Shown here in pieces: positions 6,679 through 48,377 of a DNA stretch of 57,851 nucleotides; the first letter of the stretch is position 1, and the number at the start of each line of letters is the position of its first letter. The DNA is from Chloroflexota bacterium (GTDB taxonomy: Bacteria; Chloroflexota; Limnocylindria; QHBO01): the NCBI GenBank assembly GCA_040002615.1, contig JBDUEE010000024.1, positions 1-57,851 on the forward strand, in the 5' to 3' direction. Made by a program: the position numbers and the translations under genes. A model generated the notes under the pieces. The model was not told the DNA's origin and did not search any database. It saw only the letters and a program-made list of their open reading frames with translations.

Positions 6679-7575
6679 ATGCGTCGATCTCGAGGCAAAA
6701 TCCTCCGCGCCCTCCTTGCAGGCGCCATCGCGGGAGTCTCCGTCGTGCCGCTGCCGGCCGCCGAGGCAGCGGCCAGCGTGCCTGCTGTCACGCTGGTTGG
6801 CGCCGGCGATATCGCGTCCTGCCGCTCGATGGGCGACGGGCAAACCGCCGCGCTCCTGGATGGTCTGAAGGGCACCGTTTTCACCACCGGTGACAACGCA
6901 TACGGAAACGGCACGCCATCGCAGTACAACAACTGTTACGGGCCGACCTGGGGCCGTCACAAGAGCAGGACCCGACCGACGCCCGGCAACCACGATTACC
7001 TGACCGAGGACGCCGCCGGCTACTTCGGCTACTTCGGCGACACGGCCGGCACGCCAGGTCGAGGTTGGTATGCCTACAACCGCGGAGCGTGGCGCATGTA
7101 TGCCCTGAACTCGAACTGCGACGCGATTGGCGGTTGCTGGGTTGGGTCGGCACAGGAGCGCTGGCTGCGGGCGGATCTGGCAGCGAATCCCCACGAGTGC
7201 GTGATGGCGTACTGGCACCATCCCCGCTTCAGCTCAGGCAGGCATGGCAACGAGCTTGTCGTCCGCGGCCTGTGGAAGACGCTGTATGCGGCGGGCGCCG
7301 ACATCGTGGTCAACGGCCACGATCACGACTACGAGCGCTTCGCCCCACAGGGCTGGAGCGGGACGGCAGACCCCGTGGGAATCCGCGAATTCGTGGTCGG
7401 CACCGGGGGTCGGGGCCATTACCCGCGAGCCACCGTGCAGCCGAACAGCGAGGCCTGGGATGAGACCTCGTATGGCGTATTGAAGCTGGTGCTCGGTGAC
7501 GGCTGGTATCGCTGGCACTTCATCCCAGCGGGCACATCAACGTTCCGCGACTCAGGTAGCACCGACTGCCACTGA
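6679..7575 (+). CDS. Secreted calcineurin-like metallophosphoesterase
   Basis: ORF 6649..7575. A signal-like N-terminus follows the ATG at 6679 (MRRSRGKILRALLAGAIAGVSVVPLPAAEAAAS). Metallophosphoesterase motifs GDIAS, GDNAY, GNHDY and NGHDHDYERF are present. Confidence 0.8.
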   Translation: MRRSRGKILRALLAGAIAGVSVVPLPAAEAAASVPAVTLVGAGDIASCRSMGDGQTAALLDGLKGTVFTTGDNAYGNGTPSQYNNCYGPTWGRHKSRTRPTPGNHDYLTEDAAGYFGYFGDTAGTPGRGWYAYNRGAWRMYALNSNCDAIGGCWVGSAQERWLRADLAANPHECVMAYWHHPRFSSGRHGNELVVRGLWKTLYAAGADIVVNGHDHDYERFAPQGWSGTADPVGIREFVVGTGGRGHYPRATVQPNSEAWDETSYGVLKLVLGDGWYRWHFIPAGTSTFRDSGSTDCH

Positions 7576-7580
7576 CGCCG

Positions 7581-9047
7581 ATGTCAGCTCGCGTGTACAG
7601 TCTTGGCCGGCATGTCCTTTGCAGATCTGTCTGGGCACCCATGATCCGACGTCACCTCATGGCGCTACGCATCGGCCTCATGGCCGTGGACGGGGCCGTG
7701 GCTGCCGCGGTCTTTCTGGTGGTTGCGGACCTGCGCTACCTGGATGGCGACGCATCCGCACTGTGGCGAGCGCTGGACTTCGAGCCGAGGCTCGCAGCTG
7801 TCCTTTTCGCCATGACCTGGGTGGTCGTGCTGTGGAGCTGCGGGCTGTACCGATTGACTCCTCGCTGGCGGGTCTGGAGCGAGGTGCGCGACATCGTCCG
7901 CGCAACGCTGCTGGTGATCGTGCTGGTCCTCTCCACGCTCTTCCTCACCAAGCAGACCGATGTCAGCCGCCTCTTCCTGGTGCTGCTTTTCATCGCCGAG
8001 CCGACGGTCACCCTGGCTGGGCGTCTCGCGGTGCGAGCCACCTTCGACGCGCTTCGTCGCCGCGGGCACAACGTTCGATTCATGATCATTGCGGGGACGG
8101 GGCAGCTTGCCCAGGACTTCGCCGATGAGCTCGAGCGGCACGATGGGCTGGGCATCCGCGTCATTGGCCACCTGTCAGCACCCGGTGAGCCTCCGTCGGT
8201 GGTGACGCGACCGATCCTGGGCGGGATCGACTCCATCGACAACATCGTGCATACCCAGGTCGTCGACGAGCTGGGGGTCTGCCTCCCGGAGAGCGCGTCT
8301 CGCTACCTGGAGCCGATCACCAGCATCGCGGCCGGGGAGGGCAAGACCGTGCGGGTGGCGGTCGATCCTGTTGACGAGCTTCCGGGCGCCGCGGAAGAAG
8401 TCTTTGACCGGTTCCTGGTGCGGTCGATCGTCAACGATGGCCACCGCGAGATCAGTCTCATCTTCAAGCGGCTGATCGACATCGCCGGATCGGCTATCGG
8501 ACTCGTGGTCCTGAGCCCTCTCTTCCTGGTCACGGCCGCGGCATTACGTGTCCTCGACAGCGGCCCCGTGCTGTACGGGCAGACACGCATCGGCCTCCAC
8601 GGGCGGCCATTCAAGATCTACAAGTTCCGCTCCATGGTTCCCGGTGCTCATGCGCGCCTCCGCGAGGTGCGCCATCTGAACGAGCGCAGCGGCATCGCGT
8701 TCAAGGCCACCAACGATCCCCGCATCACCCGCATCGGTCAGTGGCTGCGCCGCACCTCCATCGACGAGCTCCCGCAACTGTGGAACGTCCTGATCGGCTC
8801 GATGAGCCTGGTCGGCCCGCGGCCGCCGCTGCCGGAAGAGGTCGAGAAATACGACGTGTGGCATCGCCGACGCCTGTCAATGAGACCGGGAATCACCGGG
8901 CTATGGCAGGTCGAGGCGCGCCACGACCCGGACTTCGACACGTGGGTCCAGCACGACCTCGTGTACATCGACGACTGGTCGATCTGGCTCGACCTGAAGA
9001 TCCTGGCGAGGACACTCCCCGCCATGCTCGCGCACGGCGGACACTGA
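7581..9047 (+). CDS. Polyprenyl-phosphate glycosyl-1-phosphate transferase (WbaP/CpsE-type bacterial sugar transferase, priming enzyme)
   Basis: 488 aa. N-terminal TM segments. The C-terminal catalytic domain has [34 protein letters not shown] and [21 protein letters not shown]. An alternative ATG lies at 7641. Confidence 0.85.
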
Positions 9048-9052
9048 CGAAG

Positions 9053-9691
9053 TCAGGAATACCCGAGCTCTGCCAGCTTCGCGAGCACCTTGGCTGCCGA
9101 TTCCTCGGGCGACTCCGAACCGTCTGAGTGGCAGACGACCTCCGCGTTCAAAGGTGCCTCATACGGGTCATTCACGCCGGTGAAGTTCTGGATCTCCCCG
9201 GCCATCGCCTTGCGGTAGAGACCCTTGACGTCGCGGTCCGCGAGCACCTCGAGCGGCGCCTCGACATAAACCTCCACGAAGCGGCCGACGTTCGCTCGGA
9301 TCTGGTCGCGAATATCCCGGTAGGGGCTGATGGCGGCGGCGATCGCCACAACGTCGTTTCGCGACAGGACCTCGCACACCCAGCCAATACGCAGGATGTT
9401 CGTGTCACGATCTTCCTTGCTGAAGCCAAGCCCCTTCGACAGATGCGTGCGCACCGCATCGCCGTCGAGGACTTCGACCTTATCGCCCCGCGAGCGGAGC
9501 TCGGCCTCCAGGATGTGGGCGATCGTGCTCTTGCCGGATCCTGACAGGCCGGTGAACCAGATGGTGAAGCCCGTCGTCTCGCGATCGTGCCGCGTCCCGG
9601 CGCCACCGCCAAGGTGGATCGTCTCGCCGTGACGAGTGGTGGTCGTGGTCAGGTCGGGCGCCGGGGGCGCGGGTCGATCGGTCTCTGTCAT
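9053..9691 (-). CDS. cysC: Adenylylsulfate (APS) kinase
   Basis: ORF 9053..9910. The internal ATG at 9691 (MTETDRP...) is preceded by a GAAGGA-like RBS. P-loop [13 protein letters not shown] and LDGD are present. It lies immediately downstream of sat. Confidence 0.9.
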
Positions 9692-9720: not shown

Positions 9721-10908
9721 TCAGCGCGCGCCGGCCGGCGTTCGATAGGCGTCGATCAGGATCTTTGCCACCTCCGGGCGGCTGAACTCCTGCGGCGGCA
9801 TCTCGCCGCTCGAAAGGAGCTCTCGGACCTTGGTGCCGGACAGGATGAGGTGCTGCTCGTCGCCGTGCGGACAGGTCTTGTAGGAGGCCATGCCTTCGCA
9901 GGCATGGCACCAGAACGTGTGCTCAAAGAAGAGCGGCGTGATCCCCAGCTCGTCCGGTGCGAACTCGTCGAAGATGAGGTGGGCGTCGTAGGTGCCGTAA
10001 TAGCTGCCCACGCCTGCGTGGTCTCGGCCCACGATGAAATGGGTGCAGCCGTAATTCTTGCGCGCGATGGCGTGGAAGATCGCCTCGCGCGGGCCGCCGT
10101 AGCGCATCGCGGCGGGGTACACACTGAGCAGGGTCCGATCCGCGGGGTAGTAGTCAGCCAAGAGCGTCTCATAGGCGCGCATGCGGACATCTGCCGGGAT
10201 GTCGTCCGACTTCGTGTCGCCCACCAATGGGTGGATCAGGAGGCCATCGGTGACCTCCAGTGCGACCTTGGTCAGGTACTCATGGGCCCGATGGATGGGG
10301 TTGCGCGTCTGAAAGCCCACCACCCGGCGCCAGCCCTTCTCGGCGAAGATCGCGCGTGTCTCGGCCGGCGAGCGGCGATGTCCCGGAAAGGGTGGGTCCG
10401 CCGGCCCGTTCAGCACCGTCGCGTCGCCGCCGAGGTAGACGTCGCCACCGGCATAGATGCGCGCCACGCCCGGGTGCGCCTCCTCGGTGGTTCGGAAGAC
10501 CTGCTGCGCCTCGTGCTGGGGATCGAAGGTGTACTTCTCGGCCAGATCGAGGATCCCGAGCATGCGACCCTCGTCATCGTTGAGGGCCACCTGCGAGCCG
10601 ATGTCGAGCCGATCCGCCTCTTCCTGACTGACGGCCAGGGTGATGGGAATCGACCACGGCAGGCCGTTCGCCAGGCGCATGTCGTTGACGACAGATTGGT
10701 AGTCTGCCTGGCCCATGAAGCCGGTGAGCGGGCTGAAGGCGCCATTGCCGATCAACTCGAGGTCCGACGCGGCGACGCTGGCGAGCGTGATCGACGGCAG
10801 CGACGCTGCGCGCTCAAGGGCGCTCTCTCGCTCGCTTCCGTGCAGTGCGCGGTCGATCAGCGAGCCGCCGTGCGGCGTCGAGGTCATGGTTGCAGGTGTC
10901 AAGGTCAC
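9721..10908 (-). CDS. sat: Sulfate adenylyltransferase (ATP sulfurylase)
   Basis: 395 aa. Signature motifs [15 protein letters not shown] and VGRDHAGVG. The GTG at 10908 is preceded by GGAG. An alternative ATG lies at 10887. Confidence 0.9.
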
Positions 10909-11132
10909 AACACTCCGTGTGGCGGCTGAGAGGGTGCACGCGTCGGGGATTCGCCTGCGCGCGGCATTCGGGGTCGGGCTATCTATCCTACCGCCTGCTC
11001 CCCGGTCCGTGCTGAACGGCCGAGGTCATCGGGCCGAGCGAGTCAGCGCATGGCGGCTACAATCCGGCGGTGCCGGCGGTGCCGGTCGAATGCGTTCGCA
11101 GGAGGATCTGGTTGGCCGTCGCGGCAAAGGAC

Positions 11133-12119
11133 GTGAGTGACATCGGCGAGGTCGTGCAGGCGCTGCGCGACGCCAGGCGCGTCACCGCGATCTGTCACGA
11201 GAACCCGGACGCCGACACCATCGGCGCCGCCGTCGCCGTCTGCATCATCGCGGAGCGGCTTGGCGCCGAGGCCGAGATCGTGAGCGCGGATGGCATTCCA
11301 CCGGTCTTCAGCTTCCTTTCGCACGTCGGCGGCGTCAGGCGCCGGCCGATGCTCGAGCCGGACCTCGCGGTCCTGTGTGACGCGGCAACCCTGGAGCGCG
11401 TTGGCCGGATCGCGCGCGAACAGGCGGACTGGTTCGCCAGCGCCAAGCTGCTGAATATCGATCATCATGTGAGCAGCAATCTCTTCGGCGACCTCAACCT
11501 CGTCGACTCGCGGGCCGCCGCAACCTGCGAGGTCGTGGCGCGGCTGGTGGACGCCCTCGGGATCGAGCTGGACGCAGAGCTCGCCACCCCGCTGCTGACG
11601 GGCATTGTCCGTGACAGCCACGGCTTCTCGGATCCGGCGACATCGGGCGACACGCTGCGAGCTGCTGCCCGCCTGGTCGACGCCGGCGCTCCCCTCGCGC
11701 TGATCCATCGCCTTATCCTGTCCGAGCTGCCGTTCCGCACCATGGCTCTGTGGGGCAAGATGCTGGCGGGCGTGGGCCAGGCCGGCGATGGGCGAGTCGT
11801 GCATGCGACGCTGACCCAGTCGATGCTCGACCAGACTGGCACCGAGCAGCATGACGCCGATGGCCTCGCCGAATTCCTGGCGAAGGCGAAGGGGGCCGAC
11901 GTGACGCTCCTGCTCCGCGAGCTGGGGCCGGCCGAGACGCGGGTCAGCGTGCGGACGTCCGAAGCCGTCGACGCGACCGCCATCGTGGCGCAGTTCGGTG
12001 GCGGAGGCCATGTGCGCCGAGCGGGATGCACGGTCCCTTGCCACGTCGATGAGGCGGTCGCCCTGGTCGTTTCCGCCAGCGTCGAGGAGCTGCCCCACGG
12101 ACCCGCTGCCGGCGCGTAG
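11133..12119 (+). CDS. nrnA: DHH/DHHA1 phosphoesterase (NrnA-like; candidate 3'-phosphoadenosine 5'-phosphate phosphatase / nano-RNase)
   Basis: ORF 11070..12119. The GTG at 11133 follows AAAGGA. Motifs seen: HENPDADTIGAA, LLNIDHH (DHH) and the DHHA1 motif FGGGGH. Confidence 0.7.
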   Translation: MSDIGEVVQALRDARRVTAICHENPDADTIGAAVAVCIIAERLGAEAEIVSADGIPPVFSFLSHVGGVRRRPMLEPDLAVLCDAATLERVGRIAREQADWFASAKLLNIDHHVSSNLFGDLNLVDSRAAATCEVVARLVDALGIELDAELATPLLTGIVRDSHGFSDPATSGDTLRAAARLVDAGAPLALIHRLILSELPFRTMALWGKMLAGVGQAGDGRVVHATLTQSMLDQTGTEQHDADGLAEFLAKAKGADVTLLLRELGPAETRVSVRTSEAVDATAIVAQFGGGGHVRRAGCTVPCHVDEAVALVVSASVEELPHGPAAGA

Positions 12120-12192
12120 CCAGGGAACGCCCGATGGTCGCGGTGGTCCGCTGACGGCCCCCCTCGACCGGGTCACGGTCTTCGCGCGGGCC

Positions 12193-13575
12193 TTGGCAAT
12201 CCTGCGGGCGCGCCGATGGCGCGAGTCATTGGCACTCGGATTGCCACTGGCGGCGCTGGGCGCCCTTTCCCTCTATCATCTCGGCGCTCCCAGCCTGTGG
12301 CGGGACGAGGTGGCCAGCGTGATCTTCGCCAAGGGATCGCTGCCGGAGCTGCTCACCATCGTGGGCCGCGATCGGGACGCGGTCGGCCTGGCCAACATGG
12401 CGACCTACTACCTGCTGCTCCACTTCTGGCTGTTCATCGGCGAGACCGAGGCTCGCATCCGGCTGCTGTCGGTGATCTTCGGAGTGGCCAGCGTGGTGCC
12501 GGTCTACTTCATCGCCCGCCGCCTGGCGGGCTGGCTGGCCGGCGGGCTGGCGGCCGGCATCTTCGTGCTGATCCCCTACGTCATCCACTACTCGCAGGAG
12601 GCGCGCGGCTACTCGCTGGCGATGCTGGTGGCCGGCTCGCTGACCTGGCTGCTGCTGATCGGTGTCGAGCGGCGCACCGTCTGGCCGTGGGCCGCCTACG
12701 GGCTGATTGCCGCGCTGGGCCTGTATGTCCACTTCTTCGTGGCGCTGATCGTGGCCGCGCACGGCCTGTGGGTGCTGGCCACCCGCTCGCTGCCGCCCTG
12801 GCGCAGCGCGCTGGCTGCCCTGCTGCCCATCCTGCTGGCGGCGGCCCCCATCCCGTTCATCATCGCCCAGTTCGGCGGCGGGCAGGAGTGGATACCGCCG
12901 TTGACGGTCTCGCAAGCGGCCACCAGCATCGTCTCGCTGGCCGGCGGGCTGCCACTGCTCCTGGCCATGGCCGTGCTCGTGGCAGTCGCCGTCATCACGA
13001 GATCCCGCGATTCCAGGACCTGGCTGATGATCGGGTGCATCGTCGCCACGATCGCTGGGGCGGCGCTGATCTCAATCGTCAAGCCGATGTTCGTCGGCCG
13101 GTACCTCATCGTCGTGCTGCCGCACGTCGCAGTCCTCATCGGCTGCGCCCTGATCGCCCTGCGCCCCATCATCCTGCGGGGCGCTGTGGTCGCCCTGCTG
13201 GCGGTGCTGCTGGGGGCAGCGATCCCGAGCGCGTACGCCGACCAGCACCAGCAGGATTGGCGGTCGGCCGGCACCTGGATGGCTGAGAGGGCGCAACCGG
13301 GCGACCGTATGATTGCCGGCAATGGACTGCGTTCGATTGCGTATTACCTTGGCCGCGTCGCCACCTCTCCCCTCCCTCGGTCGACGACGGCAGCGGCCGC
13401 CCTCGCGGATCCGACGGGCGGTCGCCTGTGGCTCGTATTGACCGGCCGAGCGGCGAACTCCCGGATCCGGAGCCGCCTTGTGGGCAGGTTCGTCGTCGAG
13501 GAGGAACGTGCGTTCGGCGCGGATCTGACGATCGCGCTCTTGGTCACGAAGCCGACGACGCCCGGCGCAAGCTAA
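12193..13575 (+). CDS. GT-C fold membrane glycosyltransferase (GT39 / ArnT-PMT-like), paralogue A
   Basis: ORF 11998..13575. It is polytopic and has a first-loop acidic motif SLWRDEVAS typical of GT-C enzymes. The start is uncertain: the ORF's first codons overlap nrnA by about 120 nt, and the TTG at 12193 is a guess. Confidence 0.6.
   Translation: MAILRARRWRESLALGLPLAALGALSLYHLGAPSLWRDEVASVIFAKGSLPELLTIVGRDRDAVGLANMATYYLLLHFWLFIGETEARIRLLSVIFGVASVVPVYFIARRLAGWLAGGLAAGIFVLIPYVIHYSQEARGYSLAMLVAGSLTWLLLIGVERRTVWPWAAYGLIAALGLYVHFFVALIVAAHGLWVLATRSLPPWRSALAALLPILLAAAPIPFIIAQFGGGQEWIPPLTVSQAATSIVSLAGGLPLLLAMAVLVAVAVITRSRDSRTWLMIGCIVATIAGAALISIVKPMFVGRYLIVVLPHVAVLIGCALIALRPIILRGAVVALLAVLLGAAIPSAYADQHQQDWRSAGTWMAERAQPGDRMIAGNGLRSIAYYLGRVATSPLPRSTTAAAALADPTGGRLWLVLTGRAANSRIRSRLVGRFVVEEERAFGADLTIALLVTKPTTPGAS
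12291..12884 (+). repeat. Direct repeat copy 1 (594 bp, near-identical to 13726..14319)
   Basis: Base-by-base comparison with copy 2 gives a constant offset of 1435 nt and no indels. Only 2 mismatches were found (ttcGccaaG versus ttcTccaaA near the 5' end). Similarity is sharply lost on both sides. Confidence 0.9.
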
Positions 13576-35322: not shown

Positions 35323-35403
35323 GCCGCCGGGCCCTGGTCGAAGACCTGCCCGTAAGGCACGCGGCACCTGGGCTCGCAGCGCCGAGCCGACTGGCAGGGC
35401 ACA

Positions 35404-39024: not shown

Positions 39025-39561
39025 ATGGCCGATGCGCGTCCTCCGATCGAGGTGATCGTCGAGATCCCGTCCGGCAGCCGCAACAAGTACGAGTACGACC
39101 ATGCCGGGCATCGGTTCGTGCTGGACCGAATCCTGTACAGCAGCGTCCACTATCCGTGCGACTACGGCTTTATCGAGGGCAGCCTGGCCGATGACGGCGA
39201 TCCGCTCGATGTGCTGGTGGTGATCAGCGAGCCTACCTTTCCGGGCTGCGTGGTGCGGGCCCGGCCGGTCGGCCTGCTCGACATGAAGGACGAGAAGGGG
39301 CACGACTACAAGGTGCTGGCCGTCGCTCACGACGACCCGCGCTGGGACGGGACCGGCGGACTGCAGGACCTGTCACCGCATCGGCTGGTCGAAATAGAGA
39401 ACTTCTTCAAGATCTACAAAGCGCTGGAGGGGCGCGAGACCGATGTCTCCGGCTGGCTGGGCGTCGGCGAGGCGTGGCGGATCATCGATGCGGCGATGGC
39501 TGCCGGCCACCGCGGAACAGACAGCGCGGGCGAAGCCGCCAACCCCGGAACCTGGCGCTAG
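39025..39561 (+). CDS. ppa: Inorganic pyrophosphatase (family I)
   Basis: ORF 38776..39561 with an ATG at 39025. Motifs VIVEIPSGSRNKYEYD, YPCDYGFI, DGDPLDVLV and DEKGHDYKVLAV. Confidence 0.9.
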   Translation: MADARPPIEVIVEIPSGSRNKYEYDHAGHRFVLDRILYSSVHYPCDYGFIEGSLADDGDPLDVLVVISEPTFPGCVVRARPVGLLDMKDEKGHDYKVLAVAHDDPRWDGTGGLQDLSPHRLVEIENFFKIYKALEGRETDVSGWLGVGEAWRIIDAAMAAGHRGTDSAGEAANPGTWR

Positions 39562-40626: not shown

Positions 40627-41754
40627 CTATTCATCGGCCTTACGGAGGAGTCGATCGTCGATGGGCTGCGCCGCGATGACGGACGCAAGCCTGGGCGCGG
40701 CCTGCCCGTCACCGTACGGCGACGTGCCAGAAAGGGAGGCGCGGAATTCCGGCGAGATAGCGCGTGCGATCGCATGCTCTATCGCTCGTTGCTTCGGTGC
40801 GGCATCCACGACGTTATCGCCCTGGAGCCGTCCTTCCTGACGACTCCCGATGTTCACGGCTGGGACCCGGAGCAGCGGCGCTTCGATGATCCCGGCGGAC
40901 GAATTGCCAACCAGCGCCGCGGCCGTGGCGAGGAGCACAGCGAAGTCCGGCCTGGGCACCGACGCATATGCGGGGATCCCGGCCGACCGCAGCTGCTCGG
41001 CCATCGCTCGTCCGCCGGCGTCCGTGTTTGGCAGGATCGCGAGCCGGGGCCGGCCGATCGCCGCGGTTGCCGCCAGCGTCTCCCGCATGTCTGCCGCAGC
41101 GTCGCGTGACGCGCGCGTCTCCGGGTGCTGGAGGATCAGGAGGTGACCGCCTTCGACCGGCAAACCGTACCGTCGGAGCACGGCTGCGGCGGGACGAGAG
41201 CTGAGATCCTCGAGGTCGTCCAGTCCAGGCGAGCCGGCCATGTGAATCCGCCAATTCGCTTCGCCCAGGCGCCGCAGGCGGTCGGCAGCGGCCTCCGAGC
41301 CAGGAAAGTGCAGGTGTGCCGCGCGCGTGATCATGTCGCGCTGGCTGTCGTCGACCGCGCCCAATGTCCTGTCGCCACCCGCAAGGTGGGCGACTGCCAC
41401 CGGGAAATGGATCGCGGCGAGGACAGCACCCAGCTGCTCGCCACGATCCCCCAGGACAAGCAGCCAATCGGGACGCTCGCGCCGCACGACCGGGGCGATG
41501 CCCTCGATCGCCGCACCCACGGCCCTTGCCATGTCCTCCGGCCCATCGCCCGGGGGGATGGTCGGCACTTCGGCCGCGATCTCGAATCCGGCCGAACGCA
41601 CCTCCCGCGCCGTATCACCGAACCCCTCAGCGAGATGCATCGCCGTGACCAGGAGCCTTGGATGAAGGTCGGGGTGCTCCGTGACGGCCCGGAGTACCGG
41701 CAGCCACAGCCCAAAGTCCGCACGCGTGCCGGTGACGATCAGCAGCTGCCGCAC
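40627..41754 (-). CDS. neuC: UDP-sugar 2-epimerase (hydrolysing), NeuC/LegG family
   Basis: 375 aa. Motifs LIVTGTRADFGLWLPVL, LVLGDRGEQLGAVLAA, VAHLAGGDRTLGAVDDSQRDMITRAAHLHF. Confidence 0.85.
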   Translation of the reverse strand: MRQLLIVTGTRADFGLWLPVLRAVTEHPDLHPRLLVTAMHLAEGFGDTAREVRSAGFEIAAEVPTIPPGDGPEDMARAVGAAIEGIAPVVRRERPDWLLVLGDRGEQLGAVLAAIHFPVAVAHLAGGDRTLGAVDDSQRDMITRAAHLHFPGSEAAADRLRRLGEANWRIHMAGSPGLDDLEDLSSRPAAAVLRRYGLPVEGGHLLILQHPETRASRDAAADMRETLAATAAIGRPRLAILPNTDAGGRAMAEQLRSAGIPAYASVPRPDFAVLLATAAALVGNSSAGIIEAPLLRVPAVNIGSRQEGRLQGDNVVDAAPKQRAIEHAIARAISPEFRASLSGTSPYGDGQAAPRLASVIAAQPIDDRLLRKADE

Positions 41755-41857: not shown

Positions 41858-42553
41858 ATGATGGAGTCCTACCGACGTGGCGCGCGCGTGGTCATCCTTG
41901 GTGCCGGCGGCCATGCTCGCGAAGTCCTCGATGTCTATGACGCCTGCAACGAGGCCGGATGGGGACCGCTCGAGGTGCTTGGCTTCCTCGACGATGACCG
42001 GCAACCTGGTGACAGGGTCAGCTCGCTCACGATTCTCGGCGGCATCGATTGGCTCGGCGACCACACCGATGTCCTTGCAATCTGCGGCATCGGCGACCCC
42101 GTGGTGCGTCGAAGAGTCGTGAAGCGCGCCGGCGAGCAAGGAGCCAGCTTTCACACGGTCGTCCATCCAACCGCACTGCTCACGAGCCGGGTGGAGCTCG
42201 GCCCGGGTTGCCTCATCACCGCTGGCTGCATCCTGACCAACGAAATCCAGCTGGGATCGCATGTACACCTCAACCTCGCCACGACGGTGAGCCACGATTG
42301 CCGCATCGGGGATTACGCGACCCTCGCACCGGGCGTGCACCTGGCAGGGAATGTCACGGTTGATCCGGGCGTCGACATCGGCGTTGGAGCGTCGGTGATC
42401 CAGCAACGGCGCATCGGAGCGGGCGCGGTCATCGGCGCCGGGGCCGTCGTGACAGACGACATCCCGCCCGACGCGGTGGCCGTCGGCGTCCCGGCCCGCG
42501 TGGTGAAAACGCGAAGCCCGGGTTGGGGAGACGTGGATCGAACAGGCGGCTAA
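41858..42553 (+). CDS. neuD: Hexapeptide-repeat N-acetyltransferase, NeuD/PglD/LegH family
   Basis: 231 aa. N-terminal Rossmann-like VVILGAGGHAREVLDVY. C-terminal left-handed beta-helix hexapeptide repeats (IGDYATLAPGVHLAGNVTVDPGVDIGVGASV). Confidence 0.8.
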   Translation: MMESYRRGARVVILGAGGHAREVLDVYDACNEAGWGPLEVLGFLDDDRQPGDRVSSLTILGGIDWLGDHTDVLAICGIGDPVVRRRVVKRAGEQGASFHTVVHPTALLTSRVELGPGCLITAGCILTNEIQLGSHVHLNLATTVSHDCRIGDYATLAPGVHLAGNVTVDPGVDIGVGASVIQQRRIGAGAVIGAGAVVTDDIPPDAVAVGVPARVVKTRSPGWGDVDRTGG

Positions 42554-43578
42554 CCGATGGTCGGCAGCTGGTCTGGGCGGAGCCACCCAGCGCGATCGAG
42601 AAGCTCGCGCAGCTCCGGCCGCGACAGGAGCGGCTCCTCACCACGGCCACCGTCAATCGCTCCACCGCGTCGATCGGCATGGGGTGGCCCGTGGACGACA
42701 AACATGCCGTCCACGTCCTCGGCCAGCCGCGCCTCGTCGTCGGTCAGCAGCATCTCGTGTCGCTTCTCTCCTGCCCTGGCGCCGATGGTCAGCACCTCGA
42801 TCTCGTCGGTGCGGAAACCGTACGTGGGCGCATACGCCTCGACCAGGACCTCCACCAGGTCACCCACACGCACGCGCGGCATCTTCAGGATGAAGACCTC
42901 GCCGCCCTGCATGCGGCCCATGGCATCGAAGCACAGCCGAACCGCGTCGTCGATCGGCATCATGTAGCGGCTCATCTCCGGGTCCGTCAGCGTCACCGGA
43001 CCGCCGGCCGCCACCTGGTTGCGGATGAGCGGCACCAGCGATCCGCGCGAGCCGATCACATTGCCGAATCGCACCGACGCGAAGCGGGTCGGGGCGGCGC
43101 CCTTGTACTTCTCCGCCGCGGACAGCAGCCGCTCCGCCAGCAGCTTGGTGGCACCCATCACGTTGGTCGGGTCGACGGCCTTGTCGGTGCTGATGCCCAG
43201 CACCCGCTCGACGCCGGCATCGAGCGCCGCCTCGACCACGTTCTGCGCGCCGCGCACATTGGTCTCGGTGGCCTCGAATGGGTTGAACTCGCAGGCCGGG
43301 ACGTGCTTCATGGCCGCAACGTGGAAGACGAGCTCGACCCCCGACATGGCCCGGGTCATCCGTTCGCGGCTGCGCACGTCGCCGATCAGCATCCGCAGCT
43401 CGGGAGCGTCGCGATGACGCTGCGCCAGGTCGAATTGCTTCGAATCGTCGCGGGACACAACGCGCAGGGCTCGTGGTCCCAGCGGCAGCAGGCTGGCGAC
43501 GATATGCGACCCGATCGAGCCCGTGCCGCCGGTCACCAGCACGGTGCGATCGCTGAACAGGGCGCGATGGTCGGTCAT
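42550..43578 (-). CDS. NAD(P)-dependent nucleotide-HexNAc 4,6-dehydratase (PseB/LegB/CapD-like, Polysacc_synt_2)
   Basis: 342 aa. Motifs VLVTGGTGSIGSHIV, HVAAMKHVPACEFNPFEATETNVRGAQNV and STDKAVDPTNVMGATK. Confidence 0.85.
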   Translation of the reverse strand: MTDHRALFSDRTVLVTGGTGSIGSHIVASLLPLGPRALRVVSRDDSKQFDLAQRHRDAPELRMLIGDVRSRERMTRAMSGVELVFHVAAMKHVPACEFNPFEATETNVRGAQNVVEAALDAGVERVLGISTDKAVDPTNVMGATKLLAERLLSAAEKYKGAAPTRFASVRFGNVIGSRGSLVPLIRNQVAAGGPVTLTDPEMSRYMMPIDDAVRLCFDAMGRMQGGEVFILKMPRVRVGDLVEVLVEAYAPTYGFRTDEIEVLTIGARAGEKRHEMLLTDDEARLAEDVDGMFVVHGPPHADRRGGAIDGGRGEEPLLSRPELRELLDRAGWLRPDQLPTIG

Positions 43579-44723
43579 GCCACCCCCTGGACGCGGGCGC
43601 TATCCACCAATGCATCGCACACGCGATCGATCTCGTCGTCGGTCAGGCGCGACGAGAACGGAAGGGCAAGTGTCGTCGAAGCAACCCGCTCGGTGACCGG
43701 GAAGTCGCCCGGGCGGTGACCGAAGCGCTCGCGATAGAACGGCTGCAGATGGATCGGGCTGAAATAGGGACGGCTCGCCACGCCGGCCGCCTCCAGCTGG
43801 CCGATGAGCCGATCCCGGTCGATCCTGGCATCGAGGCGGACGACGTACAGGAACCAGTCCACCTCGGCCTGCGGCAGTGGACGGGGCAGCCGGAGCCAAT
43901 CGCGGCCGGCCAGGCGCTGACCGTAGGCGGCGACCACGCGATCGCGGCCGGCCTTGAGCTCCGCCCGACGGCGCAGCTGAGCGACGCCAAGGGCCGCGCT
44001 CATCTCGTCGAGCCGGTAGTTGAAGCCAAGCTGGACGTGCCGCAGCCAGGTACCGTCATCGTCGCGACCCTGGTTTCGCATGCTGCGCATGCCGCGCGCC
44101 ATGCCGTCATCCGAGGTGACGACCATGCCGCCCTCGCCCGTCGTGATCTGTTTGTTGGGATAGAAGGCAAAGACCGAAATATCCCCCCACGAACCAACCG
44201 GCCGGCCGGCCACGCTCGAACCGAGTGCCTCGCATGCGTCCTCGACGACCCGCTGCTGCCTCGAGGCGGCCAGCGATGCGAGCTGGTCGAGCTGGCTCGG
44301 GTGGCCGAACACGTCGACCGGCAGGAACGCCCGGCTCCGGGTCGTCAGCGCCGCCTCCGCCCTCTCTGGATCGAGGCCAAGCGTCTCCTCCTCGATATCG
44401 GCAAAGACCGGGGTGGCACCCTCGAACAGGACGCAGTTGGCACTGGCCACGAAACTGAAGGGGGTGGTGACCACCTCGTCACCGGGACCGATGCCCAGCG
44501 CGCGGATGGCCAGGTGCAGTCCGGCGGTGCCGCTGCTGACAGCGATCCCGTACCGGTGACCGGCAAGCGCGGCGATCCCCTGCTCGAACTCCTCGACGAA
44601 GGGACCCATCGAAAGGACGTCGCTGTGCAGCACCTGGAGAACCAGCTCCTCTTCGAGCTCGCCGACATTCGGCTGGGCCAGGGGAATCTGCCGCCGGGTC
44701 GCGGGTCGTGCCAGGTCGGTCAT
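43575..44723 (-). CDS. DegT/DnrJ/EryC1-family PLP-dependent sugar aminotransferase (LegC/PseC/PglE-like)
   Basis: 382 aa. Motifs AVSSGTAGLHLAIRALGIGPGDEV and FAFYPNKQITTGEGGMVV (PLP lysine region). Confidence 0.85.
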   Translation of the reverse strand: MTDLARPATRRQIPLAQPNVGELEEELVLQVLHSDVLSMGPFVEEFEQGIAALAGHRYGIAVSSGTAGLHLAIRALGIGPGDEVVTTPFSFVASANCVLFEGATPVFADIEEETLGLDPERAEAALTTRSRAFLPVDVFGHPSQLDQLASLAASRQQRVVEDACEALGSSVAGRPVGSWGDISVFAFYPNKQITTGEGGMVVTSDDGMARGMRSMRNQGRDDDGTWLRHVQLGFNYRLDEMSAALGVAQLRRRAELKAGRDRVVAAYGQRLAGRDWLRLPRPLPQAEVDWFLYVVRLDARIDRDRLIGQLEAAGVASRPYFSPIHLQPFYRERFGHRPGDFPVTERVASTTLALPFSSRLTDDEIDRVCDALVDSARVQGVA

Positions 44724-44735: not shown

Positions 44736-46190
44736 CTAGGCATGGCCCGCTCGCCTCACGCCCGCCAGCTCCAGGACCAGGCGCGCGGCACGCTCAGTCG
44801 AGCGGCCGTCCAGCGAACCCAGGCGCTCGGGCAGCAGCGCCCGCGCGCGCGCCACGGCCTCCAGGTGGATAGCCGGGTCGAGCAACGAACGCGCGGCCTT
44901 TACGGCAGACGCCTCGTCGCCGGCCGCGATGGCCAGACCATCGGCCGCAAAGTCGACTGGTGACGTGCCTCGCGGCGCGACCGTGATCGACGGCACTCCG
45001 GCGATGGCCGCCTCGTACACGCTGTTCGACCAGCCGGTGACCATCGCCCATGCGCCGGTCAGCTCGCGGTGCAGCCCGTCCCCAGCCGCAACGCGTACCT
45101 CAACACCGGCTGGCGCGTCGACGTCCATGCGGAACGTCCGCGGGTCGGCCGGGTGCCGGACGATGACCAGCTCCGCCGGCGTGGCAGCGCCCGCAACGGC
45201 CATGGCCCTGCGGAGGCAGAGCGCCAGCAGCTGCGAGGTCATGGAGCCCGTCACGTATTGCGCCGCGTACACGACCCGCCGCCTGCGATCCGGCGACGCG
45301 CTGGTTGCGGAGGCCGCAAACAACGGGTCGAAACGGGGAGCCCCAATCTCAACGATGCGCTCCGCGCCAACCCCCGCCTCACCAAGCACGGCCGCGGCGC
45401 GGCTGCCGTACACCGCCATCCGGTCGTAGCCTGCGCCCTGGATGGCCCACGCGTCGGTGGCCTCGGCGTGCGGCAGGTCGAGGCTCGGAACATCGAAGCG
45501 GTGCGCCACCGCCGGCAGCAGCCGCGCCCAGGTGCCGATCTCGTCGAAGGCCACCAGCAGGCCCGGTCGCCAGCGGCGCACCAGCCCGCCGAGCGCAACC
45601 GCGCCGAGCGCGATGCGCCCCAGCTCAAGGCGGGCGACGGTCATCGTCTCTGCAGCACGCTGCTGCCCCACAACCTCACGCCAGCTGCGGCCCGCATTGC
45701 CCGCGCGTGCCAGGACGCGGGCCTGGAATGCCGCCAGCGCGGGGATGCCCCGCGGGTCAACCAGGCGCACCAGCCGCGGAGCCACCATTCCGTGCGGAGG
45801 TGCGCCAGCCGCTGCACGCCCAGTACGGACCATCGCCAGCGGCACCGACTCCCGCCGGAGCCGGTCGCGTAGCCGCTCGATCACCGGGTAGTGGGTCGGG
45901 TCGCGCACCAGGACCACGATCGGTGCCGGGCCGGCGATCGGCACCTGCCAGCTGCCCAGGCTGACCGCGGCGGCCGCTGCCAGCCGCGCAACTGCAACCG
46001 CTGCCTGCGGCGATCCGGCTCGCCGGGCGATGGCAGGCGCATCATCCCGCAGAGCGAAGAAAAGCTGTTGCTCCAGCGCGCCGGCGAGATCAATGCCATC
46101 GATGGAGAGCAGCGCCGGCTCGTCGTGCGCCGTGACCTCAACGAGCGCGTGTGCTTCGCTGCGCGCGATCTCCGGCGTTGCTGGGCTCAC
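44736..46190 (-). CDS. Hypothetical protein, possible GT-B-fold enzyme (candidate nonulosonic-acid transferase or PseG-like hydrolase)
   Basis: 484 aa. It is translationally coupled to neuA upstream by a 4-nt overlap and lies 13 nt upstream of the aminotransferase. I recognised no family signature. The C-terminal half has ELVIVRHPADP and TGWSNSVYEAAIAGVPSITV, reminiscent of GT-B nucleotide-binding loops. Confidence 0.5.
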   Translation of the reverse strand: MSPATPEIARSEAHALVEVTAHDEPALLSIDGIDLAGALEQQLFFALRDDAPAIARRAGSPQAAVAVARLAAAAAVSLGSWQVPIAGPAPIVVLVRDPTHYPVIERLRDRLRRESVPLAMVRTGRAAAGAPPHGMVAPRLVRLVDPRGIPALAAFQARVLARAGNAGRSWREVVGQQRAAETMTVARLELGRIALGAVALGGLVRRWRPGLLVAFDEIGTWARLLPAVAHRFDVPSLDLPHAEATDAWAIQGAGYDRMAVYGSRAAAVLGEAGVGAERIVEIGAPRFDPLFAASATSASPDRRRRVVYAAQYVTGSMTSQLLALCLRRAMAVAGAATPAELVIVRHPADPRTFRMDVDAPAGVEVRVAAGDGLHRELTGAWAMVTGWSNSVYEAAIAGVPSITVAPRGTSPVDFAADGLAIAAGDEASAVKAARSLLDPAIHLEAVARARALLPERLGSLDGRSTERAARLVLELAGVRRAGHA

Positions 46191-46864
46191 CGCCGGCGGA
46201 CGCGTGACAGTCGGCGAGCCTCGGCCAGGTCGGCGGCAGTGTCGACATCCAGTCCGGACGCCTCGTCCAGCACGAGCCCGGCCGGCCGATCGTCGAGCAG
46301 CCGGCCCTCGTCGAGCAGATCACGGCGGGTCACGTAGATGCCGCCGGTCAGGCGCACAGCCGGCGGCGACGCCTGCCGCCGCGCGTCGGTGCCGCGGTCG
46401 ACCAAACGGACGCGGCCATTGGCCAGCATGCCGATCACACGGATCGGCATGCCCAGCCGGCAGACGCTGACTGCGCTGCGCACCAACGGATCGCCGAGCA
46501 GCGCGATCGCCGCGTCGATCTGCTCGGCGGTGCGCAGCGGCGCAGTCGGCTGCAGGGTGACCACCAGCTCGAACCGCTCCCCATGTGCCTCCGCCTGCTG
46601 CACCGCATGCTGAATCGCCGGCACGGTCGGTGAATCATCCTGCGCCAGCTCGCCCGGACGGGACAGCACCTCGACCCCGGCTCGCCGGGCGACGCGGGCA
46701 ACCGCCGCGTCGTTGGTGGAGACCACGACGCGATCGACGCTGCCGGCCGCCAGACCGGCGCGGATGGTGTGCACGATCATCGGGCTGCCGCCAACCAGCA
46801 GCAGATGCTTGCCGGGCAGGCCCCGCGAACCGGCCCGGGCCGGAATGACCGCCAGGGTTGACAC
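46187..46864 (-). CDS. neuA: CMP-nonulosonic acid synthetase (acylneuraminate cytidylyltransferase family, NeuA/LegF)
   Basis: 225 aa with a GTG start. The signature LAVIPARAGSRGLPGKHL is at the N-terminus. Confidence 0.85.
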   Translation of the reverse strand: MSTLAVIPARAGSRGLPGKHLLLVGGSPMIVHTIRAGLAAGSVDRVVVSTNDAAVARVARRAGVEVLSRPGELAQDDSPTVPAIQHAVQQAEAHGERFELVVTLQPTAPLRTAEQIDAAIALLGDPLVRSAVSVCRLGMPIRVIGMLANGRVRLVDRGTDARRQASPPAVRLTGGIYVTRRDLLDEGRLLDDRPAGLVLDEASGLDVDTAADLAEARRLSRVRRR

Positions 46865-46904
46865 GCCAGCATTCTAGGGTCGCTTCGCCTGCATACTCGC
46901 CGGC

Positions 46905-48377
46905 GTGAGCCCGAACATGGCCCGCAGTCCCGGAGCCGCCACCTGGCCCGCCGGCCTGGCGGTGGCGCTGACGCTGGCGGCCGTCGTCGGTGCGCAGCTG
47001 GCTCCTGCGCTCTTCTTCGCCGCTGGCGTGCTCCTGCTGGGCATGCTCGCCTATCTTTCCTGGCACTGGCCGCGTGCCATGCTCGTCCTGCTCATCCTGG
47101 CTCCCCTGCTCGATCGGTTCCTGATCAGCCTGGGAATTCCGGCTGGCCTGCGGCCGGCGACGACGTATGCCAGCGAGGCGCTGCTCCTTGTGGTTGGGGT
47201 GGCGGTGACGGTCGCTGCCGCGCGCTCGCGGCAGTTGATCCCGGCCTTGCGACATCCGGTCGTCGCCGGCCTGTGCGCGTTCGCGGTGATCGGGGCCGCG
47301 TCGGCCGTCCTGAACGGCGTGCCGCCGGCCGTGGCGGTGGCAGGCCTCGTCTTCACCCTCGACGCGGCGGTGCTCTTTGTGCTGCCTCGCCTCGTGCCCT
47401 TCGGCAACCGCGAGGCCGCCTGGGCAGTGATGGCGTTCGTGGGCGCGGCGGCAGCGGCCGCGCTGCTGGCCATGGGCCAGGTTCTCATCCATCCCAATTT
47501 CCTGGGCCTGGAGACCTTCGCCGGCCGCTTCAGCGAGGGTCAACGGGTGGCGTCGCTGCTGGTCAGCCCGAACCTGCTGGGCCTTCTGCTGGCGATGGCG
47601 CTGCCGTTCTCGCTGCTCGCCTGCCTGGAGACGGCCGGTCGCAGGCGATGGGTGGCGGGAGGCGTGGCGCTCCTGCTGTCGCTGGCCCTGCTCTACACCT
47701 TCTCACGTGGCGCCTGGCTGGCGCTTGTGCTGGCAACGGTGGTCGTCAGTGTCGTTGTCGAGCGCCGCGCGATCGCCCTGTTGGCCCTGATCGGCCTGCT
47801 GACCTTCGCCATCGCGCTGGTACTACCGCGTCACCTTGCTGACCCTCAACGAGGTGAAGAGCGGTTCGACCTGATCGCTGCCACGCTGGGGCGTCTCGAG
47901 GCACTCGGCGAGGGTGACCTGCGCGTGCAGTTCGTGGAGAACGCCACGCCGATCATCCTCGACCACCCGCTGATCGGCGCCGGGCCCGGCCGCTATGGCG
48001 GCGCGGTCGCGCGCACCTTCGGCTCACCGCTCTACCAGCAGTACACCGCCGGAACCGTTCCGGTCGGGCGAACGGTCGACAACTTCTGGCTGCATCTGTT
48101 GGTTGAGACTGGGGCCTTCGGCGTGCTGGCCTTCGCCGGAGCGATCGCGATCGGCGTAGCCGATGCGCTGCGAGCTGCTTCGAAATCGGCAGGATTGCGG
48201 CGCGCGTTGCTGGCGGGCATTGCCGCGGCGATGACCGTGGTGGCCATCGACTCGATCACGGAGATGGTGCTGGAGGGCAACAGCACAGCCTTCGCCGCAT
48301 GGTTCCTGCTGGGAATGGCGACGAGCCTGGTAGGGACTGCCGCAGATCGGGCGCCGGACGCGCCCGACGCTCAGTAG
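46905..48377 (+). CDS. O-antigen ligase / Wzy_C-domain polytopic membrane protein
   Basis: 490 aa with about 11 hydrophobic segments. It has the LLYTFSRGAWLALVLATVVV motif followed by a large loop characteristic of the Wzy_C/O-antigen ligase domain. Confidence 0.7.
   Translation: MSPNMARSPGAATWPAGLAVALTLAAVVGAQLAPALFFAAGVLLLGMLAYLSWHWPRAMLVLLILAPLLDRFLISLGIPAGLRPATTYASEALLLVVGVAVTVAAARSRQLIPALRHPVVAGLCAFAVIGAASAVLNGVPPAVAVAGLVFTLDAAVLFVLPRLVPFGNREAAWAVMAFVGAAAAAALLAMGQVLIHPNFLGLETFAGRFSEGQRVASLLVSPNLLGLLLAMALPFSLLACLETAGRRRWVAGGVALLLSLALLYTFSRGAWLALVLATVVVSVVVERRAIALLALIGLLTFAIALVLPRHLADPQRGEERFDLIAATLGRLEALGEGDLRVQFVENATPIILDHPLIGAGPGRYGGAVARTFGSPLYQQYTAGTVPVGRTVDNFWLHLLVETGAFGVLAFAGAIAIGVADALRAASKSAGLRRALLAGIAAAMTVVAIDSITEMVLEGNSTAFAAWFLLGMATSLVGTAADRAPDAPDAQ

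Follow-up and report, generated by a model that had tools for sequence, protein, structure and literature searches.

Among bacteria, sulfated polysaccharides are still described as essentially cyanobacterial (PMC8205485, PMC13390465). In Synechocystis sp. PCC 6803, the xss cluster for synechan contains two sulfotransferases, repeat-unit sulfation was inferred from a gene number that matches the sulfate-to-sugar ratio, and the authors knew of no other bacterial exopolysaccharide cluster with sulfotransferases (PMC8205485). The capsular polysaccharide region of Vibrio sp. KMM 8419 has cysNDC and three sulfotransferases over 80 genes; its sulfated structure has been solved, and genes for 3'-phosphoadenosine 5'-phosphosulfate (PAPS) together with sulfotransferases were proposed as a hallmark of sulfated polysaccharide loci (PMC11641403). 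Sulfated exopolymers have also been proposed for wps-1 of Actinoplanes missouriensis, with two sulfotransferases, one of heparan sulfate type (PMC13390465), and for a cluster of Pontiella sulfatireligans with one (PMC7356697). In archaeal Halorubrum sp. PV6 (S-layer glycoprotein) and in VP4 of HRPV-1, the N-glycan contains glucuronic acid (GlcA), sulfated GlcA, and a terminal legionaminic acid derivative (PMC6137143). Finally, the "glycosaminoglycan-like" extracellular polymeric substances of granular sludge, from uncultured consortia, contain nonulosonic acids and ester or N-sulfate in high-molecular-weight anionic glycoconjugates, whose genes and producers are unknown according to the authors (PMC10483923). 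Here, we describe an island of glycan genes at 6.6 to 48.4 kb of a 57,851-nucleotide stretch of DNA (contig JBDUEE010000024.1, assembly GCA_040002615.1; the whole stretch is called the window) from Candidatus Limnocylindria, an abundant, uncultured class of Chloroflexota from soil and freshwater.

Like xss, the island is predicted to be a heteropolysaccharide cluster of the Wzx/Wzy-dependent kind in which sulfotransferase genes stand among those for glycosyltransferases (GTs), but it carries six sulfotransferases, the sixth being probable, where xss has two. PAPS genes, uronic acid dehydrogenases, a nonulosonic acid pathway, and O-acyltransferases of the acyltransferase-3-SGNH type (AT3-SGNH) are present here and absent from xss, whereas the PCP/OPX export proteins and XssQ/R/S regulators of xss were not found in the window; the xss host is a diderm cyanobacterium and this host belongs to Chloroflexota. 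With Vibrio sp. KMM 8419, the island shares PAPS genes (second copies in Vibrio) alongside sulfotransferases, an acyltransferase, and GTs. However, the three Vibrio sulfotransferases lie in an 80-gene region that also makes O-antigen and uses ABC (Kps) export, the PAPS genes are cysDN-cysC rather than sat-cysC, and there is no nonulosonic acid pathway. The wps-1 and Pontiella clusters are likewise non-cyanobacterial, Wzx/Wzy-type or GT rich, and equipped with heparan-sulfate-type sulfotransferase domains, but the number of sulfotransferases is one or two, both PAPS genes and a nonulosonic acid module are missing, and the wps-1 product is a proposal known from genes.

A preliminary description of this DNA held that characterized bacterial gene sets carry one or a few sulfotransferases, and the literature, with one to three in characterized or proposed clusters, agrees. 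Its view that no equivalent had been described has to be narrowed, as GlcA, sulfated GlcA, and legionaminic acid are already found together in the Halorubrum N-glycan, which shares with the product predicted here the chemistry of hexuronic acid, sulfate, and legionaminic acid. However, that glycan is archaeal, is N-linked via Agl/AglB, and is a pentasaccharide with a single sulfate rather than a polymer, and its sulfotransferase genetics have no established correspondence with the window's genes. Granular sludge provides chemistry without genes and the window genes without chemistry. A literature search found no paper linking Limnocylindria with sulfotransferases. The island is thus an unusually sulfotransferase-dense form of a rare, known kind of cluster, in a lineage in which nothing similar has been described.

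Gene content and predicted product

The window has a G+C content of 68%, and its raw open reading frame lists are crowded with spurious frames. Frames were selected by third-position G+C into a nonoverlapping set of 46 genes, all of which were scanned against Pfam and NCBIfam with the curated gathering or equivalog values as score cut-offs. These scans confirmed nearly every item of the first inventory (Table 1): five sulfotransferases plus a probable sixth, sat and cysC above their NCBIfam cut-offs, one Ugd-like and one AlgD-like dehydrogenase (g14 and g27), two AT3-SGNH proteins (g28 and g29), three GT4 enzymes, one GT2 enzyme of family PF13704, two GT-C enzymes (PMT_2), the WbaP-type primer g7, the Wzx flippase g26, and, at the family level, a six-gene nonulosonic acid pathway. 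A further enzyme with a GT-B fold, g37, completes the set of GTs found in the island. Two Wzy- or ligase-like proteins had also been claimed; g39 has the Wzy_C match, whereas g24 has the membrane topology but no matching model.

We predict that these genes suffice for a PAPS-dependent, multiply sulfated, uronic-acid-containing, O-acetylated glycan of the Wzx/Wzy type. From the gene content, the island is probably a Wzx/Wzy-type surface-glycan neighborhood whose product would be such a heteroglycan, most likely with a legionaminic-type nonulosonic acid. In the proposed mechanism, Sat and CysC would make PAPS in the cytoplasm, while g7 primes undecaprenyl phosphate and the three GT4 enzymes and one GT2 enzyme extend the repeat unit from donors that would include UDP-GlcA (g14) and GDP-mannuronic acid (g27). 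The g37 protein would add the CMP-activated nonulosonic acid made by g32 to g36 and g38. The five soluble sulfotransferase paralogues and the divergent sixth would then place sulfate at distinct positions of the unit while it is lipid linked and not yet flipped, with g10 clearing 3'-phosphoadenosine 5'-phosphate (pAp). Wzx would flip the unit and g24 polymerize it. Outside the membrane, the AT3-SGNH enzymes would O-acetylate the chain, and polyprenyl-phosphate sugars may be the donors from which the two GT-C enzymes attach side branches. Finally, g39 or the nearby LCP protein g45 would link the product to a protein or cell wall acceptor, unless the product is released.

The description "glycosaminoglycan-like" holds for the predicted charge density and for the resemblance of the sulfotransferases to heparan sulfate (HS) enzymes, but it does not extend to the backbone, for which no hexosamine-uronate machinery was found. 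No glycosaminoglycan synthase (KfiA/KfiC, KfoC, HAS, or PmHS type) and no Kps ABC exporter was found among the window proteins, and because such a synthase is missing the locus does not qualify as one for glycosaminoglycan proper.

A bolder form of the prediction, which we offer tentatively, is a hypersulfated Limnocylindria coat with a uronic acid backbone, a legionaminic acid cap, and roughly as many sulfates as sugars, each repeat unit being served by five to six regiospecific sulfotransferases. If it were true, the coat would be a bacterial functional analogue of the animal sulfated, sialylated glycocalyx, its sulfotransferase complement would diversify by cassette exchange as O-antigen serotypes do, and the locus would be the first genetic source for the environmental signals of "sulfated glycosaminoglycan-like plus sialic acid" polymers. 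The more general prediction, if true, would already provide a set of bacterial enzymes for regiospecific glycan sulfation, with which sulfated polysaccharides could be made enzymatically, and would mean that dense sulfation diversifies as a surface trait in one of the major uncultured lineages of soil. The island and its syntenic relatives supply concrete candidates: a sulfotransferase family like HS 3-O-sulfotransferase (3-OST), a resident PAPS/pAp cycle, and a GT-B family without a name that is linked to operons for nonulosonic acid.

Five paralogous sulfotransferases and a divergent, probable sixth

The preliminary description had counted six sulfotransferases. Five of them (g16, g17, g19, g20, and g25) passed both Pfam cut-offs, with 43.7 to 61.1 bits against 27 for PF13469 (Sulfotransfer_3) and 26.2 to 43 bits against 22 for PF00685 (Sulfotransfer_1), and g22 fell just under 22. 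When both types of model were run over all six-frame open reading frames of the window, exactly these five plus one were found and no others. The start of g19 was set according to an independent gene call in locus L083 (302 amino acids).

The five are paralogous, with g17, g19, g20, and g25 being 40 to 48% identical to g16, which served as the alignment reference. K13, G15, T16, and T17 of the 5'-phosphosulfate-binding loop GAPKxGTT are invariant among them. So are K35 and E36 of a KExxFF motif that aligns with the NEVHFF segment of HS 3-OST-1, and we take its Glu to be the catalytic base. In the 3'-phosphate-binding region, R101-x-P103 and H111 are invariant, and a Ser follows H111 in most but not all of the five. 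The best Protein Data Bank (PDB) match of g16 was 3RNL (E = 7.6e-39), an uncharacterized bacterial sulfotransferase structure, followed by HS 3-OST-1. A profile of the five paralogues matched 3RNL over its full length (230 bits) and then HS 3-OST-1, -3, and -5 and the N-sulfotransferase domain of NDST1, with both PAPS-binding motifs aligned. The nearest characterized relatives of the five are therefore carbohydrate sulfotransferases of the HS 3-OST/NDST kind, and transfer to a glycan is predicted.

The g22 protein is only 18% identical to the other five. Its orthologues in four relatives (61 to 81% identity) yield the same subthreshold Pfam matches, and P15-R-T-G-S19 and R63-N-P65 are invariant among them. 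On these matches and motifs, g22 is a probable sulfotransferase. No transmembrane segment was predicted in any of the six and PAPS is cytoplasmic; therefore, the sulfotransferases should act in the cytoplasm.

We compared the window with related loci by tblastn of all window proteins against fetched loci (L numbers). Among these were 80 stretches of roughly 20 kb that were each centered on a relative of the window sulfotransferases. Most of the 80 have one sulfotransferase, and only three, all of the same lineage, have at least five (L001 and L009, five each; L002, seven). The same six occur on a metagenome contig of a near-identical strain (L082/L083; JGI 3300086397). Each window paralogue has its own orthologue in L001 and L002 at 68 to 84% identity, whereas inside the window the identity to g16 is 40 to 48%. 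From this we conclude that the paralogues are old and have each been retained separately, an argument for distinct specificities rather than redundancy. The most widely conserved is the g25 type, found in 11 related loci and mostly adjoining Wzx.

The alignment of the five paralogues, used as query against 185,579 genomes that each represent a species, gave at least 578 relatives in many phyla; the two best came from uncultured Chloroflexota metagenome-assembled genomes (78 to 79% identity). Among 1.84 billion proteins (profile A2), the family comprised 11,016 clusters at 50% identity with E <= 1e-30, and at E <= 1e-10 the same 3RNL-like/HS-3-OST-like family comprised 35,432. This size suggests that bacterial glycan sulfation is much commoner than the literature states. 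Some members of the family are fused into proteins of 570 to 750 amino acids, and almost all are uncharacterized.

PAPS supply and predicted pAp removal

The genes for ATP sulfurylase and APS kinase lie at the left of the island, next to g10, a DHH/DHHA1 phosphoesterase that has both the DHH and GGGH motifs. The best NCBIfam match of g10 was the NrnA oligoribonuclease/PAP phosphatase model NF053633, at 72 bits, far under the cut-off of 350. However, a DHH gene of this type adjoins cysC and/or sulfotransferases in at least 11 loci (L001, L002, L007, L013, L016, L017, L025, L028, L030, L084, and L088). This repeated adjacency is good associative evidence that g10 removes pAp, the by-product of sulfotransfer.

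The claim that PAPS synthesis is dedicated to the island stands only in part; L084 and L088 weaken it as a strict statement. In these two loci, a DHH-cysC-cysND group has no sulfotransferase within 10 kb, and therefore the PAPS genes may also serve general sulfur metabolism. These same loci have a CitMHS/TrkA_C transporter next to, or fused with, cysC, plus cysND (L084, 15264 to 19703; L088, 15156 to 17663), and for this transporter sulfate import, coupled to the making of PAPS, is a possible role. In another relative, L016 (DASRYM010000033.1, labeled Candidatus Zixiibacteriota), sat and cysC are 81 to 85% identical to those of the window and are accompanied by a DHH gene, a sulfotransferase, and a GT4 gene. 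Such closeness across phyla is surprising and may reflect misbinning or recent transfer.

PAPS genes that stand in such a neighborhood without sulfotransferases nearby, together with the lack of an assigned substrate for 3RNL, the closest solved homologue, would also fit a quite different reading, in which the sulfotransferases act on lipids, small metabolites, or peptides, sat and cysC are purely assimilatory, and no sulfated glycan is made. We consider this very improbable, as the sulfotransferase genes are interspersed one by one among those for GT4, GT2, Wzy-like, and Wzx proteins, an order shared by L001, L002, and L083; the pairing of Wzx with a sulfotransferase is kept in most of the 11 loci that have the g25 type; the nearest characterized relatives act on carbohydrates; and no PAPS/APS reductase was found among the window proteins by the Pfam and NCBIfam scans.

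The nonulosonic acid core and g37

All six enzyme families of the UDP-linked legionaminic acid route are clustered (g35, g36, g34, g33, g32, and g38). The NeuB-family synthase g32 scored 398.7 bits against a cut-off of 399.65 for TIGR03569 and 297 bits against 340 for PseI. The NeuC-type epimerase and the PglD-type acetyltransferase argue against pseudaminic acid. Because the dehydratase, aminotransferase, and cytidylyltransferase score below their cut-offs, legionaminic, neuraminic, and other nonulosonic acids are indistinguishable, and the alternative to legionaminic acid may be N-acetylneuraminic acid with a separate 4-amino-6-deoxy sugar.

Within this core lies g37, for which we found no Pfam match and no PDB sequence match. 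Foldseek with its AlphaFold2 (AF2) model returned UDP-GlcNAc 2-epimerases, TarL, and GT-B glycosyltransferases as top matches. The positions D216-E217-x-G219, H346-P347, and S388-N-S390 are near invariant and seem to resemble sialyltransferase motifs (DE-x-G, HP, and S-N-S), a resemblance that no search confirmed. Homologues of g37 lay inside nonulosonic acid operons in every context sampled (L082 and L084 to L088). On this gene neighborhood, g37 is a candidate CMP-nonulosonate transferase, possibly of a new family. A few members of the family weakly match DUF6716, and L087 has a second g37 paralogue after Wzx.

Modular structure and the number of products

In L001 and L002, which are syntenic, the block corresponding to the sulfation genes reads cysC-sat-DHH-GT-C-GT-C-(g13)-beta-helix-ST-ST-GT4-ST-(ST)-GT2-g22-GT4-g24-ST-Wzx (ST, sulfotransferase). 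The candidate polymerase g24 covaries with this block, at 38 to 73% identity in L001, L002, L009, L030, and L077. Another arrangement is seen in L086, where glnA-Wzy_C-cytidylyltransferase-PglD-g37-NeuC-DegT-dehydratase-NeuB-ppa-serA forms the core alone, with no sulfotransferase, polyprenyl-phosphate glycosylphosphotransferase (PGT), or Wzx, and L085 is similar. The core is followed in L087 by ppa, Wzx, a WecG-type GT, and sulfotransferases, and in L084 and L088 it occurs with DHH-cysC-transporter-cysND. In the compact L013, the order is nonulosonic acid genes-Wzx-ST-ST-g22-DHH-cysC-PGT-serA. The site is therefore modular, with a conserved core (g32 to g39) between glnA and ppa and a variable sulfation and GT block of about 32 kb between ppa and serA, which holds from 0 to 7 sulfotransferases in relatives. 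The pyrophosphatase gene ppa, at the junction, was considered as a dedicated driver of ATP sulfurylase; we rejected this, as ppa also adjoins NeuB in the sulfation-free L085 and L086.

These arrangements bear on the preliminary claim of one genetic unit, which stands in part. The island has a single Wzx and a single PGT, the nonulosonic acid core has no flippase of its own, and Wzx and sulfotransferases are contiguous with nonulosonic acid genes in two independent compact loci, L013 and L087, all of which favors one product. However, several observations weigh against the prediction of a single sulfated, nonulosonic-acid-containing glycan. The organism is uncultured and the product is predicted from gene content alone. 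The coding strand switches at least 11 times across the island, which is thus not one operon. The nonulosonic acid core occurs in L085 and L086 without a sulfation block, and PAPS genes occur in L084 and L088 without sulfotransferases nearby; being linked in the window is therefore no proof of a single product. In addition, some of the parts are less secure than the rest: g22 was under the Pfam cut-off, and neither hhalign nor a profile search of the PDB gave it a significant tie to the main family; g35, g36, and g38 are below their equivalog cut-offs; g37 is not recognizable by sequence as a sialyltransferase, as a PDB profile search gave marginal GT4/epimerase matches (E >= 0.17); g24 had no Pfam or other profile match as a Wzy; and none of the 46 window proteins matched the Wzz/PCP, GNVR, BY-kinase, or Poly_export families. 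Monoderms are not expected to have an outer-membrane exporter.

Given these observations, we weighed a division into two or more glycoconjugates, in which the core (g32 to g39) decorates its own acceptor, such as a surface protein or wall polymer, and the block from ppa to serA builds a sulfated uronic acid polymer free of nonulosonic acid. Such a division would account for the standalone core between glnA and ppa/serA, for the housekeeping ppa gene that divides the modules, for the varying number of sulfotransferases beside the core, and for the two Wzy-like proteins, of which g39 tracks the core and g24 the sulfation block; a recombination breakpoint within the island, with mosaic identity between two strains (see below), points the same way. 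It is nevertheless a doubtful reading, since in the window neither a flippase nor a large PGT belongs to the core and the sole Wzx lies in the sulfation block, and since nonulosonic acid genes are followed by Wzx and sulfotransferases in L013 and L087. Whether there is one product or more, the locus is built from separable modules and is not one fixed unit.

Wzy_C and the possible acceptor

Orthologues of g39 (47 to 62% identity) lie beside the nonulosonic acid core in L084 to L088. The Wzy_C family includes O-oligosaccharyltransferases and ligases, and by this domain g39 is a candidate polymerase, ligase, or O-oligosaccharyltransferase. A glycan that is linked to protein (S-layer or surface glycoprotein) or to peptidoglycan, rather than a free exopolysaccharide, would be compatible with both one and two products, and by analogy we regard it as possible, if unlikely. 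It would fit the conserved Wzy_C gene that accompanies the core in all relatives, the two PMT_2-type GT-C enzymes, the LCP and WecA/TagO-like genes 7 to 9 kb to the right, the SLH cell-wall-anchoring domains on distant homologues of g15, and the absence from the window scans of Wzz/PCP or free-exopolysaccharide export proteins. It also has an archaeal precedent in the series Glc-GlcA-Man-sulfated GlcA-legionaminic acid (PMC6137143). Its acceptor protein, however, is hypothetical, Wzy_C fits all three activities alike, and the separate Wzy-like g24 suggests long-chain polymerization. The two genes to the right are an LCP ligase and a WecA/TagO-like GT4-family transferase (g45 and g46, 55234 to 57725), and the LCP synteny is preserved in L082 and L085.

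Dehydrogenases, O-acyltransferases, and strain variation

The best PDB match of g27 was AlgD, the GDP-mannose 6-dehydrogenase (1MFZ/1MV8), at 393.5 bits compared with 234.7 bits for the best UDP-Glc dehydrogenase. This closeness suggests that the glycan may contain mannuronic acid as well as GlcA. The two AT3-SGNH proteins are 65% identical to each other, and g29 is the orthologue (98% identical) of the sole copy in L082, a strain without the g28 cassette. L082 matches window positions 35537 to 56206 at 98.1% and then joins directly to 33773 to 32234 at 85.9%; therefore, the window carries an extra AT3-SGNH cassette. Between g28 and g29 lies a scar, in which the 5' and 3' ends of a g27-like dehydrogenase gene remain and its interior is deleted. 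It forms direct repeats with the intact gene, each 91% identical (31858 to 32008 with 35370 to 35520, 151 nucleotides [nt]; 33054 to 33192 with 35556 to 35694, 139 nt).

The recombination breakpoint falls at about 33.8/35.5 kb. Identity to L083/L082 is mosaic, from 86 to 99%: about 99% for g13 to g17 and g25, 95% for g27, 94% for g20, 93% for g21, 92% for g18, 90% for g19, and 86% for g12. The mosaic between the two strains indicates recombination tracts inside the island, and such swapping of cassettes is typically seen where surface-glycan loci are under diversifying selection.

Other genes and flanks

Coordinates and scores of all of the features are collected in Table 1.

Table 1. Features of the glycan island, with positions in the window and best supporting matches
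Gene	Positions	Strand	Assignment	Evidence
g6	6649-7575	+	Secreted calcineurin-like phosphoesterase, left boundary	Metallophos 36 bits; one N-terminal transmembrane/signal segment
g7	7581-9047	+	Large polyprenyl-phosphate glycosylphosphotransferase, WbaP/WcaJ architecture, priming	Bac_transf 227 bits + CoA_binding_3; TIGR03025 391 bits, cut-off 295.6
cysC	9053-9691	-	APS kinase	P-loop GLSGSGKST; NF002059 269.6 bits, cut-off 244
sat	9721-10908	-	ATP sulfurylase	Pfam ATP-sulfurylase 329 bits + PUA_2; NF003166 574 bits, cut-off 387
g10	11070-12119	+	DHH/DHHA1 phosphoesterase, candidate pAp phosphatase, NrnA type	Pfam DHH 51 bits, DHHA1 36 bits
g11	11998-13575	+	GT-C (PMT_2)	PMT_2 32.8 bits, cut-off 26.1; ~9 transmembrane segments
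g12	13592-15010	+	GT-C (PMT_2)	PMT_2 33.1 bits; ~12 transmembrane segments
g13	15065-16657	+	GtrA-type four-helix membrane domain + HPr-kinase/phosphatase-like P-loop domain	GtrA_DPMS_TM 81 bits
g14	16703-18022	+	UDP-glucose 6-dehydrogenase-like, Ugd/TuaD/AglM type	Three UDPG_MGDP_dh domains; TIGR03026 378 bits
g15	18121-19911	+	Secreted right-handed beta-helix protein, candidate glycan-processing enzyme	Beta_helix/NosD; N-terminal signal-like segment
g16	19905-20816	-	Sulfotransferase 1	PF13469 61 bits, PF00685 38 bits
g17	20813-21727	-	Sulfotransferase 2	PF13469 43.7 bits, PF00685 26.2 bits
g18	21738-22886	-	GT4	Glycos_transf_1 121 bits + Glyco_transf_4
g19	22883-23791 (frame to 23869)	-	Sulfotransferase 3	PF13469 52.6 bits, PF00685 33.2 bits
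g20	23796-24701	-	Sulfotransferase 4	PF13469 57.6 bits, PF00685 38 bits
g21	24770-25777	+	GT2-type	PF13704 Glyco_tranf_2_4 52 bits, cut-off 27.5
g22	25747-26517	-	Divergent probable sulfotransferase, PF03567-like	Sulfotransfer_2 20.6 bits, Sulfotransfer_1 19.8 bits; cut-off 22
g23	26554-27777	-	GT4	Glycos_transf_1 107 bits
g24	27774-29321	-	Polytopic membrane protein, candidate Wzy polymerase	~10 transmembrane segments
g25	29318-30316	-	Sulfotransferase 5, Wzx-adjacent type	PF13469 51 bits, PF00685 43 bits
g26	30285-31856	-	Wzx (MOP) flippase	Polysacc_synt_3 (PF13440) 278 bits; NF007773 243 bits, cut-off 273
g27	31892-33238	+	Nucleotide-sugar 6-dehydrogenase, AlgD-like	Three UDPG_MGDP_dh domains
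g28	33232-35322	+	AT3-SGNH O-acyltransferase, extra cassette	Acyl_transf_3 103 bits + SGNH 104 bits
Scar	35370-35694	+	5' and 3' remnants of g27-like dehydrogenase gene, internal deletion	
g29	35737-37821	+	AT3-SGNH O-acyltransferase	Acyl_transf_3 99.5 bits + SGNH 97 bits
g30	37797-39008	+	GT4	Glyco_trans_1_4 84.5 bits + Glyco_trans_4_4; start per L082 gene call (403 amino acids)
ppa	39025-39561	+	Family I inorganic pyrophosphatase, housekeeping, junction of two modules	Pyrophosphatase 177.5 bits; 178 amino acids in L082
g32	39558-40616	-	NeuB-family nonulosonic acid synthase	PF03102 297 bits + SAF
g33	40627-41754	-	NeuC-type hydrolyzing UDP-sugar 2-epimerase	TIGR03568 333 bits, cut-off 236
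g34	41858-42553	+	NeuD/PglD-family acetyltransferase	PglD_N + Hexapep; TIGR03570 212 bits, cut-off 161
g35	42550-43578	-	UDP-sugar 4,6-dehydratase (Polysacc_synt_2)	PF02719 322 bits; PseB 304 bits, cut-off 408
g36	43575-44723	-	DegT-type sugar aminotransferase	PF01041 380 bits; PseC 296 bits and LegC 273 bits, both below cut-off
g37	44736-46190	-	GT-B-fold enzyme of unnamed family	AF2 pLDDT 92, pTM 0.91; Foldseek GT-B fold
g38	46187-46864	-	CMP-nonulosonate synthetase (cytidylyltransferase)	CTP_transf_3 73 bits; PseF 109 bits, cut-off 206
g39	46905-48377	+	Wzy_C (O-antigen ligase/polymerase superfamily) membrane protein	PF04932 61.8 bits, cut-off 31.7

The phosphoesterase g6 is absent from the compact relative L013, and its part in glycan synthesis is uncertain. 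The true start of g11 is probably later than position 11998. The g13 protein, modeled by AF2 with a pLDDT of 85, matched DPMS in its transmembrane part and HprK/P in its C-terminal part by Foldseek, and its P-loop reads TDTGKTS. We considered this C-terminal P-loop as a seventh, membrane-tethered sulfotransferase, which the HPr-kinase/phosphatase-like fold rules out. With 1,332 homologues, the g13 family is very large and highly conserved in Limnocylindria and Chloroflexota, and so g13 is probably a general envelope gene. Many database entries label the family "dolichol-phosphate mannosyltransferase" despite the lack of a GT2 domain.

The beta-helix gene g15 is conserved beside the sulfotransferase block, and the distant homologues with C-terminal SLH domains are 40 to 46% identical to it. 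It had no PDB sequence match. A mannuronan C5-epimerase of the AlgG/AlgE type was considered and not supported: the sequence has GFDPA in place of DPHD/DPHE, which we take to be the epimerase motif, with no invariant His there. L085 has a beta-helix protein that carries a fused copper-binding domain. Database annotation assigns homologues of g37, g15, and g13 to Candidatus Limnocylindria or Limnocylindrales.

Base composition gave no sharp signature of foreign DNA, with a G+C content of 65 to 70% in the island and 66 to 71% in the flanks, and Rfam and tRNA scans were empty inside the island. To its left, the window has a GT87/PMT_2 GT-C gene (g1, 13 to 1236). At the right end, a partial tRNA gene on the minus strand (57795 to 57851) is cut by the end of the window; it matched Rfam RF00005 at 41 bits and had no ARAGORN call.

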